Source: a virus
Taxonomy: Duplodnaviria; Caudoviricetes
Virus record (IMG/VR): IMGVR_UViG_3300037295_000528
Span: 1 to 34,416 of that record
DNA length: 34,416 nucleotides
Reading direction: 5' to 3' (one strand)
Part shown: positions 15,261-34,416 of the stretch, in pieces
Layout: each line of letters opens with the position of its first letter
Numbering within the stretch: the stretch's first letter is position 1
The notes under the pieces: model-generated
Database searches by the model: none
The model's input: only the letters and a program-made list of their open reading frames with translations
What the model was told of the DNA's origin: nothing
Position numbers and translations under genes: made by a program

Positions 15261-15596
15261 TTAATTTACGTATTCAGCGTATTTAGCCTCGACCATTTCT
15301 TGGGCTTGGTTTACATTGATTTCAACTTCGTCTCCCACGTTCCACGGCAGCAAAAAAGCACCACAAGGAGAAAGTAAGAACCGAATTAAAACGTTATTTG
15401 CATCAGCAGTTACTGTTTCATTAGCCTTATTTGCATCAGCAGTTACTGCTTCATTAACCGCATTTACATCAGCAGTTACTGCTTCATTAACCGCATTTAC
15501 ATCAGCAGTTACTGCTTCATTAACCGCATTTACATCAGCAGTTACTGTTTCATTAGCCGCTTCAGTACTTGCGTTTTTATTATCAGAATTTTTCAT
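15261..15596 (-). CDS. Small post-capsid protein with 11-aa repeats
   Basis: About 5 copies of NEAVTADVNAV plus C-terminal 'GDEVEI...AQEMVEAKYAE' domain. Confidence 0.7.
   Translation of the reverse strand: MKNSDNKNASTEAANETVTADVNAVNEAVTADVNAVNEAVTADVNAVNEAVTADANKANETVTADANNVLIRFLLSPCGAFLLPWNVGDEVEINVNQAQEMVEAKYAEYVN
15401..15561. repeat. 33-bp coding tandem repeat, ~5 copies
   Basis: Units start at 15401, 15434, 15467, 15500, 15533; the middle three are identical. Confidence 0.92.
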
Positions 15597-20481: not shown

Positions 20482-22197
20482 TTAAACATGTATTTCATTT
20501 TTATCCAGCGGCTTGCTGTATTTTCCTTTATCTTCTTCAGGAGAGAGAGAGCCGCCAAGCGCCATTACCAGTGCTACAATTCCATCAATTCTGCGGCCGT
20601 TTCTTTGCGAATTTCCTTTGTGCAATTTTATATTGTCGTTTGCATCGGACCAGGTGATGCAACCGGAAAGCATCCATGACATGATCGGATTTCCATCGTG
20701 TAAAATTTTGCCTTGATAAATCAGTTTTTCAAGTTCCTTGGTTGGGAATGACATATTTGTAATGCTTTGGCTAAAGCCGGAAATATTGGCACCAATGGCA
20801 TCGAGATTTGTAATTAAATAACTGGAATTATGCAAATCGACTTCAATGCGTTTTATTCCGTGTGAACTGTAGTTTTCTTGCACTACCTTTTCGATGTATG
20901 CGTAGTCAATCATGTTTCCTGGTGTGGCAATTAGCCATCCTTGATCCATCCAATATCTGTAAGGCACTTTGTCATCGCGGCTTCGTTTGTCGATATTTTC
21001 TTTTGGACAAAAGAACCATGGTTTGCAATATCGATCGCCGTTATCGTCGGGTTCTGACAATGCCACAAAAGCGGAAATATCAGTGGTTGTGGATAAATCT
21101 AAACCTGCATAACTTCCAAGTGTTTGAAAAATACCTTCTGGAATTGCAACTACTTTGTTTGCATCCCATATTTCGGAAGGGATCCAAACATTGGGTGCAT
21201 CTACCCACATGTTTAAATGTTTGGTTTTAAAATTTGGAATTTTAGAAGGTTGCAATTTTGCATTTTCGTATTCTTCCAGAATTCTTTCAATTTTTAAACC
21301 TTGGCCCAAAAGCGGATTTGCTTTTGACCAATTCAATTCATTTTCCCAATCATCATCTGTATCTAAATCGTGAATCATAATCCAAAGATGGTCCATTTTT
21401 GCGCGTCCTTCGAGCACTTCTATAATAGAATCTTCATAACGTTTGCAGGCACTTTGCACGTTGGTTCCAGCTGTGGTGATGTGCCACAAAAGCGGCTGAC
21501 TTCTTTGAACGGATGATGATTCAAGGTTTTCTTTTACGGAATCATCTTTGTGGGCGTGGTATTCGTCAATGACTGAAAGAAAACTATTTATTCCATCTTG
21601 GGTTTTGCTATCACCACCCAAAGCCCGCATGGTTGATTTGGTCCGTGAATTTCCGATAATTCTCTGTTGGCAGTAAAAACCTAGTTTTTTTAAATTCTTA
21701 TTGGCCACTGGACTTTCAATAAACATTTTGGTTTGTTCCCAACAGATCCTGGCTTGTTCTTCTTTTGTCGCGCCAACGTATATTTGGGCTTCCATTTCCA
21801 TTTCAAAAGACATGCAGTATAATGCAAGGCCCGCCATTTCGGCTGACTTTCCGTTTTTCTTTGCGCGTTTGTCGTAAACCGCTTTGATCCGTCGAAGGTT
21901 ATCTGATTTTTTTTTCCAGGCAAAAACATTGTACATCGTGAATGCTTGAAATCCTGCTAAGTGAAACGGTTTTCCAGCTAGTAATCCAAGCGTGTGGTTA
22001 ATGAAAGTTGGATAAAAATTGACAATATGCATTCCTGCATCGTGGTCCAGATAGAACCCATCCTGATCTGCGGTTTCTATCCAGGAGTAAAAGCGGGCAA
22101 CGGCTTGTTTTATTTTTTTCCCAGCGGTTATTTTGCCGGACTGGACATCTGCTGCGTATTGGAAGGGAAGGGATTTTATTTGTGTTGGTGAAAGCAT
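20482..22197 (-). CDS. terL: Terminase large subunit
   Basis: Walker A 'AKKNGKS', Walker B 'VIDEYH', 'ITTAG', nuclease motifs 'GLDLS..D' and 'RIDGIVA'. Confidence 0.96.
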   Translation of the reverse strand: MLSPTQIKSLPFQYAADVQSGKITAGKKIKQAVARFYSWIETADQDGFYLDHDAGMHIVNFYPTFINHTLGLLAGKPFHLAGFQAFTMYNVFAWKKKSDNLRRIKAVYDKRAKKNGKSAEMAGLALYCMSFEMEMEAQIYVGATKEEQARICWEQTKMFIESPVANKNLKKLGFYCQQRIIGNSRTKSTMRALGGDSKTQDGINSFLSVIDEYHAHKDDSVKENLESSSVQRSQPLLWHITTAGTNVQSACKRYEDSIIEVLEGRAKMDHLWIMIHDLDTDDDWENELNWSKANPLLGQGLKIERILEEYENAKLQPSKIPNFKTKHLNMWVDAPNVWIPSEIWDANKVVAIPEGIFQTLGSYAGLDLSTTTDISAFVALSEPDDNGDRYCKPWFFCPKENIDKRSRDDKVPYRYWMDQGWLIATPGNMIDYAYIEKVVQENYSSHGIKRIEVDLHNSSYLITNLDAIGANISGFSQSITNMSFPTKELEKLIYQGKILHDGNPIMSWMLSGCITWSDANDNIKLHKGNSQRNGRRIDGIVALVMALGGSLSPEEDKGKYSKPLDKNEIHV

Positions 22198-22211: not shown

Positions 22212-22598
22212 TTATAAAAGTTTTAATTGACTTTGCTCAATATCTTGGTAATGCTCTATGAGTGAAGGAATTATTATAAGCATGTGAAATTGCAAATTAT
22301 CTACATTGTAATCAGAAACATTTAGTTTCATTCCATCAATAGCATTTTTAACTTGCTGCTTATTTAATTCAGAAACCGCTCTGATATACCAAGCATACTT
22401 ATTCATTAATTGGTAATTACTATCAAAATTAGTTCGTGAACTATTGTAGGGAACAAAGCAATCTTCAATAAATTGATTTTTTGATTTTGATATTTCTGTG
22501 TAAAACACATATCCAATTTTTGCAATTTCGTTGTTATCAAAGTTGTTAATATTGTCATTTGAAATCATGTGGTTCTGGTATTCTGTGAATGTTTTCAT
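22212..22598 (-). CDS. Hypothetical protein between terS and terL (start revised to MKTFTEY)
   Basis: The revised start avoids overlap with the cassette-like unit. Confidence 0.6.
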   Translation of the reverse strand: MKTFTEYQNHMISNDNINNFDNNEIAKIGYVFYTEISKSKNQFIEDCFVPYNSSRTNFDSNYQLMNKYAWYIRAVSELNKQQVKNAIDGMKLNVSDYNVDNLQFHMLIIIPSLIEHYQDIEQSQLKLL

Positions 22599-22658
22599 CG
22601 GTGTGGTTTTGTGTTTTGGATTTATATTAAAAACGCAATAACATGTGTAAAGCTGGTA

Positions 22659-22945
22659 GTTAGCTGCAAGCTTACGGAACACGCTTAATAGGATCATCCG
22701 ATAGACATTCAGCAAGTGTAATATTAGGGTCGCATAAGAAACAGAACCCTTCTGTTCTTAAATTAAAATCCATTGGCAATTCGTGTTTACATCCTTGACA
22801 AATAAAGCCATCAGCTAACACATTATTGCCGACAATTGCGGGCTTAGTGGTTGGTTGAAAATTTTTGATTTTCATATACTTTTGTTTTAAGTGAAACATT
22901 TGTGCTTTTAATTCCGCAACTGCGGCAATAATCGGAACGTTATTT
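22659..22945 (-). mobile_element. attC-like hairpin (22812..22945) plus a single cassette-like unit (22659..22819)
   Basis: Minus strand AAATAAC..ATTATTGCCG-CAGTTGCGG...CCGCAATTG-T-CGGCAATAAT..GTTAGCTG; the unit ends in the complementary CAGCTAAC. Confidence 0.55.
22672..22899 (-). CDS. Small zinc-binding protein (CxxC...CxxC); start may be 22875
   Basis: CQGC and CFLC motifs; both possible start codons lie inside the hairpin loop. Confidence 0.55.
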   Translation of the reverse strand: MFHLKQKYMKIKNFQPTTKPAIVGNNVLADGFICQGCKHELPMDFNLRTEGFCFLCDPNITLAECLSDDPIKRVP

Positions 22946-23383
22946 TACTTTCAAATACTGCTCAAACAAATCAAATTGACCAGTTTCTGCAAGTCCTTTT
23001 AATTCGCTTTCAGATTTTGGATCAAGTCCAAACTGCTTAAAGCATTTGAAAAGAATATCTGAAGCGTTATTTCGTAGCACAATTTCTGTTGTAATATTTG
23101 TGGCACCGGTTTTATACACCTGGATAAATCCAGTTCCGGCAGCTTCTTTGTTTTTTAAATTGATTGCTTTACTTGCATACTCGAATTGGTCCATTGCCGA
23201 TGCGAAAATTTCTAAAGCTGGAAGATAGATGTCTTTAAGTCTTTCATTTTTTGCCAGCATTTTTCCCATCGCTAAATAATATTTTTTGGCAGCTGCCGAT
23301 AAATACATCGGCGGTTTTGGAACCAAAGAAAGTGTTTGTTTTCCTTCGCCAATATGTACAACATTCATGTTTTCATTTTTCAT
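22940..23383 (-). CDS. terS: Terminase small subunit, P27 family
   Basis: 'PKPPMYLSAAAKKY...QFGLDPKS'; follows the HNH gene. Confidence 0.88.
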   Translation of the reverse strand: MKNENMNVVHIGEGKQTLSLVPKPPMYLSAAAKKYYLAMGKMLAKNERLKDIYLPALEIFASAMDQFEYASKAINLKNKEAAGTGFIQVYKTGATNITTEIVLRNNASDILFKCFKQFGLDPKSESELKGLAETGQFDLFEQYLKVK

Positions 23384-25341: not shown

Positions 25342-26016
25342 TTAAAAACCTCCTATTTTTTCTTTTCTTGGATTTAGCTCAATCACTGGATTGTCAAATC
25401 TTGATTGATTCTTAATCCAGTTCAAAGCATATTTCTTAAAACGACCAGAAAGCACGTTCAAATTAAATTCCAAACCTTCCTGCTCGACAGTCGCATTAAA
25501 CATTTGCGAAAACATGACGAATTCGTTTATTTGCTTTTTAAATTGCATCATCAAAATATCAAATTGAGATCTAAAATTAACCTCTAAAAAAGAGAGCGCG
25601 TCCTTCTCTTTATTCATTGTATTATTAATTGTAATATTATCATATATTGGAGTGACGATTTTGTCACTAGGTAGTGATGATTTTGTCACTACCCTAGTGA
25701 TGATTTTGTCACTAGGTAGTGATGATTTTGTCACTAGGTTACGAGCTGAATTTTTGATGAATATTTTTCGCATATTTCCTTTTTCTGGATAGTGCTCAAT
25801 AACTAAAAAACCAACATTTTCAAGTGAAGAAATCCAGCGTGAAATCGTTTTATGATCGACAGAATACAATGCAGCAAAATATTTATTATCGGCCCAGCAG
25901 AAGCCTTCCTGATTGCACAATGCCGTAATTTCACCATAAAGCAATTTTGCATTAGCGGTCAATGATTTTTCATATCTGACATCAGCTGGAATAATAGCAT
26001 AGAAACTTGGATTCAT
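25342..26016 (-). CDS. Replication initiator with N-terminal winged HTH
   Basis: 'YAIIPADVRY...AKLLYGEITALCNQEGFCWADNKYFA'; precedes dnaB; contains internal iterons. Confidence 0.88.
   Translation of the reverse strand: MNPSFYAIIPADVRYEKSLTANAKLLYGEITALCNQEGFCWADNKYFAALYSVDHKTISRWISSLENVGFLVIEHYPEKGNMRKIFIKNSARNLVTKSSLPSDKIITRVVTKSSLPSDKIVTPIYDNITINNTMNKEKDALSFLEVNFRSQFDILMMQFKKQINEFVMFSQMFNATVEQEGLEFNLNVLSGRFKKYALNWIKNQSRFDNPVIELNPRKEKIGGF
25651..25736. repeat. Replication origin iterons: 4 x AGTGAYGATTTTGTCACTA
   Basis: Copies start at 25651, 25673, 25696, 25718; AT-rich tract adjacent (~25610..25648). Confidence 0.85.
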
Positions 26017-30909: not shown

Positions 30910-32139
30910 TTATTCCTTGCATTCAAAGCTACTAATAATCTGAAATAGTGCCAAATCCCGATCTTTTTCGGGAAATTTATCTTTATAATAGTTATCAACA
31001 TCATCGCGTTCGTGGCCCACCAGTTCACGGATCAAGTCTGGTTCTATTCTGTACTGTTTTGCAAGGTTCATAAAAGTATGCCGCGCCACTTTTACACTTA
31101 AATTATCGCCATCTGGAAGCACTTCAATATCATGCAACTTTTGTATGGATATCAATCCACGCTGAAAGGTCCTTCTAAAAACTTCATAATTGCTTTTTTC
31201 CTTTCCAAAAGAGAAAATATAATTGTCATTTGATGTAAATTTTTGCAAGATTAGTAACGCTTTAGGGTGCAATTTTATATCAATCCGCTGGTTTGTATCT
31301 GTTTTTGTCCGCTCAAAAATCAGTCGGCCGCGGCGTATTTGTTTCTTCTGTAAAAAATAAAGGTCAATTAAATCACAACCCCCGCAATAAAACTGAAGTA
31401 AAAATAAATCCAAGTACTTTTGCTTCGCACCTGGTACCTCAATTTGCTCCAGTTTAAAAATTGTTTCTTTGTCCAAATATCTTTTTCGGTTACTAAAAGC
31501 CCGCACTTTCAATCCAGCAAACAATCCGGCAAAAGGTTTTGGATCCGGAAGTCTGTACATCAAAATACCTTTATTATAAATAGAACGAAGTGCTCTCAAA
31601 TATAGATTAATTGTACTTTTTGAATTTCCTAAACCCAATTGGTAGTTTTTAAAATTGGTCAAAATTTCAAAGCTTAAATTTTCCAAAGTCGTTTTTTGTC
31701 CAAAAAAATCAAATTGCGCCAAAACGTTTTTGTAAGACTTGACGGTTCCCAATATGTTGTCGGCTTTTTTCTTGTTTCCGTTTTTTGTCATCATCTGCGA
31801 CATTTTGACCATATCAGTCATCAGTTTTTCGCCGAATTCAATAAATGATATTTCAGTTAACGTAGTTCTAAAAATTTCAGCATGTGCCACATTTACATCC
31901 TTAATTTTTTTCAAAACCACTTTTTTAGCTCGAATTTTTAGGTCGGCAATGATTGGCATCAAAATATCATAGTCCGGATGCCTTTGTGATATAATTTGTT
32001 CTGAATCGATAAAATGGTGCTTAAATGAAAAACCAACGGTGACGTAACGTTTATTTTCATTTTGCACGATTTGTAAAATAATTGGAAAGCCATCGACAGT
32101 TTGATTTCGCTTTGTATCTAAAAAAAGTTTTACGGTCAT
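30910..32139 (-). CDS. int: Tyrosine integrase
   Basis: Arm-binding N-terminus, SAM-like domain, 'ARHTF', 'LVGH...YY'; adjacent to attP. Confidence 0.92.
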   Translation of the reverse strand: MTVKLFLDTKRNQTVDGFPIILQIVQNENKRYVTVGFSFKHHFIDSEQIISQRHPDYDILMPIIADLKIRAKKVVLKKIKDVNVAHAEIFRTTLTEISFIEFGEKLMTDMVKMSQMMTKNGNKKKADNILGTVKSYKNVLAQFDFFGQKTTLENLSFEILTNFKNYQLGLGNSKSTINLYLRALRSIYNKGILMYRLPDPKPFAGLFAGLKVRAFSNRKRYLDKETIFKLEQIEVPGAKQKYLDLFLLQFYCGGCDLIDLYFLQKKQIRRGRLIFERTKTDTNQRIDIKLHPKALLILQKFTSNDNYIFSFGKEKSNYEVFRRTFQRGLISIQKLHDIEVLPDGDNLSVKVARHTFMNLAKQYRIEPDLIRELVGHERDDVDNYYKDKFPEKDRDLALFQIISSFECKE

Positions 32140-32249: not shown

Positions 32250-32296
32250 GTGAAGATAGAAGGATTCGAACCTTCGACTTCCTGCTTAGAAGGCAG
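32250..32296 (-). other. attP core: 3' half of tRNA-Arg(TCT)
   Basis: CTGC-CTTCTAA-GCAG anticodon arm, GAAGG-TTCGAAT-CCTTC T arm and acceptor 3' strand; the 5' half is absent. Confidence 0.85.
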
Positions 32297-32380
32297 TAAC
32301 CTAAACAGTATAAGTAATTTAAAATCAATACATTAAAATAAAAATAAAAATGTCATTTTCTTTTTATTTTCTTTTTAACA

Positions 32381-34081: not shown

Positions 34082-34416
34082 ATTATTGTACTATTTGCCA
34101 ATTGTTAATTTCCGTACCATATCCCAACGATCCATTCGGTAAAAAGTCAGAGCTAAAGTGCAAATAAAACGCCACATCCAATCTTTTAACTTCTCTTTGA
34201 AGTGTAGTAAAGCTCGGATAATGTTCGTCCATGTACAAATTGCTAGCTTGAAATAGCTGTTCGTATTGTTCAGAATTAATGTTTATTTGCTTGTTTCTTA
34301 ACTCTTGAAATTCCGTTTCGTATGTTGAAACAACTACTCCATTTTCATCTAAAACATCATGCTCCAACATTGCCACGTCTCTAATCTGAAAAGTGCATCC
34401 GCTTTCGTTTTTTACC
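34082..34416. repeat. Direct repeat copy B of 1..335
   Basis: 327/335 identical. Confidence 0.95.
34083..34416 (-). CDS. 5'-truncated copy B of the 140-aa tail-tip associated gene
   Basis: Same protein as 2..424 except HL->SF; frame runs off the window edge. Confidence 0.7.
   Translation of the reverse strand, partial: VKNESGCTFQIRDVAMLEHDVLDENGVVVSTYETEFQELRNKQININSEQYEQLFQASNLYMDEHYPSFTTLQREVKRLDVAFYLHFSSDFLPNGSLGYGTEINNWQIVQ

Follow-up and report, generated by a model that had tools for sequence, protein, structure and literature searches.

How does a phage genome come to hold, between its two terminase genes, a hairpin that resembles an integron attachment site and leads a single small gene, and what would move such a unit? 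The locus lies in a viral record of 34,416 nucleotides (IMGVR_UViG_3300037295_000528), and this whole stretch is referred to below as the window. An initial annotation had proposed that phages capture cassettes here via folded-DNA sites, using a recombinase supplied in trans. Our follow-up bears out a cassette system and a genome devoid of a cassette recombinase, but the unit that moves is a different one. We consider it probable that a 280-bp stretch of hairpin plus gene is one mobile cassette, moved at AAC boxes by a short integron-like tyrosine recombinase of Bacteroidota that is related to the enzyme of the rAID-1 clusters and comes from another genome.

The window is apparently a complete 34-kb temperate siphophage encoding a helicase, an HNH protein, the small and large terminase subunits (terS and terL), portal, capsid and tail genes and an integrase. 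Its completeness as estimated in the record is 100%, and an end repeat of 98% identity (1-300 and 34082-34381) is consistent with a complete circular genome. The style of its genes and the taxonomic distribution of the site family and the enzyme point to a host among the Bacteroidota, and the best-matching sequencing runs are salt-lake metagenomes, with no RNA data set among the matches. No close relative of the phage was found in the annotated phage collection, either by DNA or by recombinase, and 401 genomes of one genus gave short weak matches only. The terminase genes terS (22940-23383; phrog_83, E 1.5e-15) and terL (20482-22197; phrog_9, E 3.5e-133) both lie on the minus strand, as does a 128-aa orphan gene (22212-22598) in the slot that related phages use for a cassette recombinase. 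This slot is variable: a relative (run X2, record 3) carries 523 other bases in place of the gene, whose sole homolog found was itself, beyond a weak 29% match in L031.

A profile search found no IntI in the window, which matched neither the integron integrase model TIGR02249 nor the cassette-recombinase profile, an empty answer that by itself shows little. The phage's own integrase (30910-32139, minus strand; phrog_1) was considered as the cassette enzyme and rejected, since it has an arm-binding-type N-terminus, with a weak Arm-DNA-bind_5 match, and does not match the profile of the cassette family. Upstream of the integrase gene lies a tRNA-like piece (32258-32318, minus strand) that scores 27.7 bits against a gathering score of 29 and in which ARAGORN finds no gene; it is probably the attP copy of a host tRNA. 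The window also contains six 129-nt repeats inside a 348-aa ORF (688-1632), five 33-nt repeats inside a 111-aa ORF (15396-15593) and iteron-like repeats within the replication initiator gene (25651-25736).

The hairpin and the gene behind it

Re-reading the sequence confirmed all coordinates originally assigned to the hairpin, the boxes and the ORF. On the minus strand, the terS stop codon TAA (22942-22940) lies within AAATAAC (22945-22939) and thereby supplies the TAA of the left AAC box. The attC-like hairpin that starts here (22817-22941, 125 nt) pairs the arm ATTATTGCCG-CAGTTGCGG with CCGCAATTG-T-CGGCAATAAT; the unpaired T at 22832 stands as described, but the supposed mismatch turns out, on the gene strand, to be a G-T wobble. 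The site ends in GTTAGCTG (22819-22812) and spans 134 nt in total, so that AAC and GTT core boxes and an attC-type hairpin are all present, in a geometry with spacers of 6 and 2 nt (6/2). Folded as DNA, this 134-nt strand reaches -19.8 kcal/mol (z = -3.4; 0 of 200 shuffles as good), and the strand bias of the site family, described below, makes the gene strand the likely folding strand.

The hairpin is not a chance structure. With a score of 33.5 it is the sole site of 6/2 or 5/2 geometry in the window, and 100 dinucleotide-shuffled windows yielded six sites scoring at least 22 and none reaching 33.5. A strong stem directly after a stop codon might suggest that what lies between terS and terL is a terminator or a known structured RNA, its likeness to attC being fortuitous. 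We regard this as extremely improbable: a scan for intrinsic terminators (a stem followed by a T-run) found no terminator-like site at the hairpin, no Rfam family was detected in the window or in seven array loci, none of the shuffled windows attained the score, and the mobility and the comparative data set out in the next section contradict it. The initial annotation had itself named a known RNA motif or terminator as grounds for abandoning its proposal. An exact search of viral contigs with the window's left arm returned 0 matches.

The loop of the hairpin carries the start codon (22872) of a 66-aa ORF (22672-22872, minus strand; stop 22674-22672), and the 3' arm of the hairpin encodes residues 9-19. 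The peptide has the pattern CxxC-H..CxxC..C, and besides the window's own protein we found 12 homologs at 77-92% identity, most of which are four residues longer, the window's copy ending at an early stop. It is probably a small zinc-binding protein; Pfam, NCBIfam and PHROG contain no family that matches it at cut-off, and its fold model (pLDDT 53) is unreliable and too poor for a structure search, the Atlas hits carrying no names.

Beginning 5 nt past the ORF stop, CAGCTAAC (22666-22659) is complementary to GTTAGCTG at 8 of 8 positions, and the extended complementarity previously reported (12/15) was confirmed. As had also been noted, no second hairpin follows this distal box (fold z = -0.45). 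In line with the suggestion of an attI-like distal end, positions 22640-22658 (minus strand) may be the resident half of an attI-like or secondary site that ends the array. Under a matrix built from 47 phage array-end sites, this stretch (22658-22640) ranks 19th among 1330 AAC sites, with a weak match (2.9 against a training median of 9.6), and a relative's variant of it is nearer to the array-end consensus than the window's. An AATAAC..GTTATT inverted repeat around this end site was considered as a mini-hairpin and rejected, as its pairing is broken in a relative.

The probable mobile unit and its junctions

A classical integron cassette is an ORF followed by its attC, and the locus might be read in the same manner: the gene strand would be the attC top strand, cut at G|TT, and the unit would be an ORF plus a following hairpin, here the last unit, with its hairpin lost. 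The original delimitation was similar, with a unit of ~160 bp and junctions at G|TT on the gene strand. Relatives do vary at the GTT/AAC boxes and similar hairpins recur beside unrelated ORFs, two outcomes on which the initial annotation had staked its proposal; the unit, by contrast, had to be redrawn, because the hairpin travels with the ORF behind it, in ~280 bp bounded by AAC junctions.

The evidence comes from 13 loci fetched by peptide homology (one of them, L211, is the same phage as the window) and from individual sequencing runs. Past the distal AAC, five different hairpin or end sequences are found in L209, L213, L212, L215 and L214: L209, L213 and L215 run on into other hairpins and L214 into array-end sequence. 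In L212 the window's hairpin and ORF are preceded, ahead of the left AAC, by other sequence and followed, directly past the distal AAC, by a new hairpin. A copy in run X6 (record 4) is identical over 22659-22840 (0 differences) and continues into a further hairpin exactly past 22659, marking the distal box (22659-22666, minus strand) as the right junction. On the other side, a terS relative (run X8, record 17) diverges immediately past 22940, with 29 nt beyond visible; this record and the L212 comparison assign the bases before AAC in the left junction box (22939-22945, minus strand) to the resident site and not to the cassette.

A wider comparison of 255 delimited cassettes agrees. The hairpin in front is common to all 15 homologous pairs (about 8 cassette families, with one pair, the window and L211, mis-delimited by the script), a figure favoured by the 127 loci in the sample that were fetched by their hairpin-arm pattern. 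Behind the cassette, 10 of the 12 judgeable pairs diverge, and ahead of the hairpin 10 of 15 do. These comparisons show, as far as sequence can, that the unit consists of hairpin plus ORF, about 22939-22660, with its junctions at AAC on the gene strand. The putative mobile cassette, 280 bp at 22660-22939 (minus strand), recurs in other contexts; the position of the cut within AAC, which sequence cannot resolve, is placed by analogy with integrons. What survives of the earlier cassette idea is a mobile cassette with the boxes as its junctions, but the order is reversed, a hairpin with the gene behind it. This definition accounts for the start codon in the loop and for the missing hairpin after the distal box.

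Hairpins are themselves exchanged as well, or cassettes are built on stock hairpins. In L214 the same ORF family stands behind another hairpin, a single type of hairpin precedes various ORFs, the breaks falling at 22812-22816, and the hairpin-encoded N-terminus differs in 4 of 13 homologous proteins. Such swaps at GTT (L214; P0010-P0013), together with the breaks just named, are what the classical order would predict, but that reading is quite unlikely, since the hairpin in front is shared and the sequence behind is not, the identical copy switches exactly past the distal AAC, and the gene strand folds better and often carries the start codon inside the leading hairpin (86 of 189 viral cassettes). 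In L209 and L213 the hairpin before the CxxC ORF has the right arm of the window's hairpin and a different left arm; it is poorly paired and looks chimeric.

The peptide gene family was likely captured more than once, to judge from sequence neighbourhoods: its homologs L219-L221 have no called sites nearby, and L210 and L218 have their own start within a different cassette. A search for the empty site returned two matches, both inside an unrelated gene and dropped as chance. Among the contigs of eight runs none joins across the cassette; contigs drop rare variants, so that absence is not implied.

Sites and recombinases in phages and Bacteroidota

The window's hairpin belongs to a site family with the architecture AAC, 5-6 nt, arm...arm, 2 nt, GTT; related phages carry such sites in arrays, often in the terS-terL interval. 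Eighty viral loci fetched by terL similarity alone contain 35 such sites on the terminase strand and one on the other, often in rows (five in L034, four in L010), and in 11 of these loci a site lies within 3.6 kb upstream of terL. Where both terminase genes are present (38 loci), the gap between them is below 100 nt in 28, longer and siteless in six, and longer with sites in four. A further 127 loci were added by the arm pattern, which biases the consensus; in all 80 + 127 loci (1.05 Mb) we called 271 sites, while 0.29 Mb of shuffled DNA yielded 4.

Scoring without a reward for wobble pairs gave 395 unique sites, 295 of type 6/2 and 100 of type 5/2. Read on the AAC..GTT strand, their arms oppose G to T 705 times and A to C 210 times, and this strand is the better-folding one in 351 of the 395; the G-T excess and the better folding make it the likely equivalent of the attC bottom strand. 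At positions 1-3 and 5-9 of the arms, Watson-Crick pairs make up 90-99% and are of several types, in part owing to how sites were called. Extrahelical bases had been taken as a hallmark, but apart from the one at 22832 they are uncommon in the family (82 bulges among 395 sites); the idea that the bulge always lies on the GTT arm was rejected, with 52 on the AAC arm and 30 on the GTT arm.

In 121 of 157 viral pairs, at least 6 of the 7 nt that follow GTT agree with the tail of the next site; a comparison with the own hairpin instead gives 6 pairs, and a reversed control likewise 6; in hosts the corresponding counts are 29/35, 1/35 and 3/35. Complementary ends of this kind are compatible with both ways of defining the unit. 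Of 208 viral or metagenomic cassettes, 186 have their ORF on the folding strand and 16 on the other, six being unclear.

A motif search found tyrosine recombinases of 267-277 aa behind the arrays. By tblastn the enzyme is present in 6 of the 80 terL loci (three nearly identical) and in 2 of the 127 pattern loci, in each case ~45-60 nt behind the AAC that ends the array, so that in phages the array lies upstream of the recombinase. L038 parallels the window in layout: the terS stop lies in AAC and is followed by a hairpin, another cassette, an end site, the recombinase and then terL. A bacterial assembly (L337:225-5480; G426:C48) contains seven sites, then an end site and a phage-type recombinase, and is probably a prophage.

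The recombinase at a fixed distance behind the array end also bears on the suggestion that the repeats are mere homology blocks through which phage homologous recombination shuffles small genes, with the tyrosine recombinase a bystander. Hairpin families common to several cassettes and the chimeric-looking hairpin of L209 and L213 would suit this account, which we nevertheless rate as very unlikely: the junctions fall at a 3-nt box without flanking identity, and the ends of the units are complementary over long distances.

On the host side, 80 genome loci were picked by their recombinase, mostly from Bacteroidota. Arrays of sites adjoin the recombinase in 39 of them; the other 41 have no called site, and many contigs end soon after the recombinase gene. 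Of 93 sites, 91 fall into two layouts, both of which point the array end at the recombinase: 59 sites in 24 loci are downstream of it and on the strand opposite to it, and 32 sites in 15 loci, among them a probable phage contig, are upstream of it on its own strand. The other 2 lie elsewhere. A conserved attI-like motif is found ~100-120 nt behind the host recombinase gene. Host cassette ORFs are in the classical orientation in 60 of 73 cases (9 reversed, 4 unclear), and in 60 of the 69 clear ones the strand that folds better runs antisense to the genes. Counting the enzyme only, a sample of 201 genomes from one order has close homologs in 92.

Three observations concern the distribution of the enzyme in bacteria. 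One genome (G512, contig C1) has 12 matches to the recombinase profile, most of them clustered at 1.87-2.04 Mb. The recombinase proteins of L262-L266 are identical across three Flagellimonas species, which suggests a recently spread mobile element. An Acinetobacter plasmid (L331:4004-6903; NZ_CP044520.1) encodes a shortened homolog that aligns with 81% of a Flavobacterium enzyme at 54% identity. It sits immediately 5' of tet(X5)-estT, and a GTT box is found a short way ahead of the start codon; the scan called neither a hairpin site nor a complementary end there, and a link between tet(X) and the cassette system is at most suggested.

Two Bacteroidales records, B. ovatus NZ_CP081918.1 and P. 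distasonis NZ_OY725747.1, have immunity-gene arrays behind a recombinase homolog and fit the description of rAID-1. Behind their genes lie hairpin sites with 2/5 spacing, ~45 nt and an ATT core, of which five were called in L329 (20 candidate ends) and five in L330 (14); the phage enzymes are 34-36% identical to these two homologs.

The array-linked recombinases match PF00589 and score best against XerA-type models; against TIGR02249 they reach 133 and 168 bits, with a cut-off of 265. They span 24 residues where IntI4 (2A3V) spans 66, some 42 fewer at the IntI insertion. This insertion has been linked in the literature to the recognition of folded sites, so for an enzyme that lacks it single-strand chemistry is a hypothesis. 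In a tree of 54 rows (6 of the 8 phage enzymes, the 39 host loci of 80 that have sites, and 9 others), the array-linked recombinases, the two of rAID-1 type included, stand apart from host Xer proteins with support of 100/98, and five phage enzymes form a group (99/95) with those of two phage-like genome loci; the tree contains no IntI and so does not place the family relative to it, and L099 forms a long branch.

A recombinase without the roughly 40-residue insertion, best matched by XerA-type models, might be thought to work the same units at ordinary double-stranded Xer-like core sites. The hairpin would then be a by-product or have a function in the RNA, in the start of translation or the stability of the transcript, and a start codon in the loop would be in keeping with that. 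We judge this unlikely, because the arms covary across diverse sequences while the spacer geometry stays fixed, and because the better-folding strand of the hosts is mostly antisense to the genes, which a role in mRNA does not explain.

A proposed mechanism and its place among known systems

The mechanism that we favour, a cassette moved at its AAC boxes by a recombinase from elsewhere, starts from what the compared sequences display: the unit, its AAC junctions, arrays, complementary ends, strand-biased folding and a recombinase beside the array ends in phages and hosts. The gene strand would fold as single-stranded DNA, and the recombinase would cut it within AAC, much as IntI cuts the bottom strand of attC. 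In the excised 280-bp circle CAGCTAAC would pair fully with GTTAGCTG, and the circle would insert at a short double-stranded site, here composed of the terS stop codon and 22658-22640. With the phage genes encoded on the folding strand, the hairpin comes ahead of the gene and provides its start codon, and the cassette is probably expressed from a transcript of the phage itself. The enzyme may come from the host or from a co-infecting phage; alternatively, the cassette may now be fixed.

Extended to the phylum, we give an even chance to the proposal that Bacteroidota and their phages share a second, phylum-wide system of integron type, in which an enzyme free of the IntI insertion acts on folded single-stranded DNA. 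The phages would have an enzyme lineage of their own and reversed cassettes whose hairpin serves as translation start and N-terminus, phages without the enzyme would collect cassettes at stop-codon sites in trans, and rAID-1 would be the gut branch. Standard surveys, as represented in the text of PMC9024848, find hardly any integrons in Bacteroidetes. Should the mechanism hold, this major phylum and its phages would possess a gene-capture system that IntI-based tools have missed, rAID-1 would acquire a testable mechanism, the hypervariable blocks of small genes in these phages would be explained, and folded-site recombination would not need the IntI insertion. The locus is a minimal test substrate for this, having one cassette with both junctions mapped by natural variants and a counterpart, L038, with the enzyme in the same slot.

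Integrons are defined by IntI, attI and attC cassettes, in the terms excerpted from Cury et al. (2016, PMC4889954). The present system resembles them in its AAC/GTT core boxes, in an imperfect hairpin that folds better on one strand, in chimeric sites with complementary cassette ends (121/157 viral and 29/35 host pairs) and in co-oriented arrays that end at a short site beside a tyrosine recombinase, which occurs in both orientations in hosts. It differs in its spacers of 5-6 and 2 nt and the rarity of bulges, in a recombinase that lacks the IntI domain (roughly 35 residues near patch III) and stays below the TIGR02249 cut-off, and in phage ORFs whose orientation to the site is inverted (186 of 202 clear cases) and which often start inside it. 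The order of ORF and then attC is not that of the present locus, where the hairpin precedes the ORF, although the hosts do show it. The window locus is a real, well-delimited cassette of an integron-like system; the system works like an integron but lies outside the IntI-based definition (IntegronFinder). Nor is the genome a CALIN, which comprises at least two attC sites without an integrase, since it has a single hairpin.

Phage-borne attC-like sites without an integrase were described by Qi et al. (2023), including those of Polaribacter phage P12002L (PMC9892861). According to the sections available from that paper, the two P12002L sites were read as divergent and tested with IntI1, and attC2 was recombined but attC1 was not (PMC9892861). 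By the present comparison, attC1 is a hairpin of our family with a shorter left spacer and attC2 an array-end junction read on the strand opposite to the genes; P12002L (L208, 14503-40948) has ten called family sites beyond the published two, several of them around methyltransferase genes. The inverted layout and the short recombinase set our cassettes apart from these phage CALINs and do not figure in the portions of that paper at hand (PMC9892861). Neither inverted phage cassettes nor their enzyme were found described in a literature search from which subscription journals were mostly absent.

The closest relative on the host side is rAID-1, which the text of Ross et al. (2019, 10.1101/471110) presents as clusters of Bacteroidales with an XerD-like recombinase and a co-directional array with repeated intergenic motifs. 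Membership there requires a 5' XerD-like recombinase more than 44% identical to BF9343_RS08045 and at least two co-directional genes downstream of it (10.1101/471110). The likeness lies in a recombinase homolog with repeated integron-like intergenic sites, in an ATT-core variant. The same text gives no site structure, junction, mechanism or phages, and its figure and supplements may show the motif (10.1101/471110). The cargo in the window is not an immunity gene, and the window has no such recombinase; in phages that carry one, the array lies upstream of it. To call the system undescribed, as the initial annotation tentatively did, is too strong, given that its host side overlaps rAID-1 and that a site in the Polaribacter phage had already been called attC: rAID-1 is the described host branch of this system.
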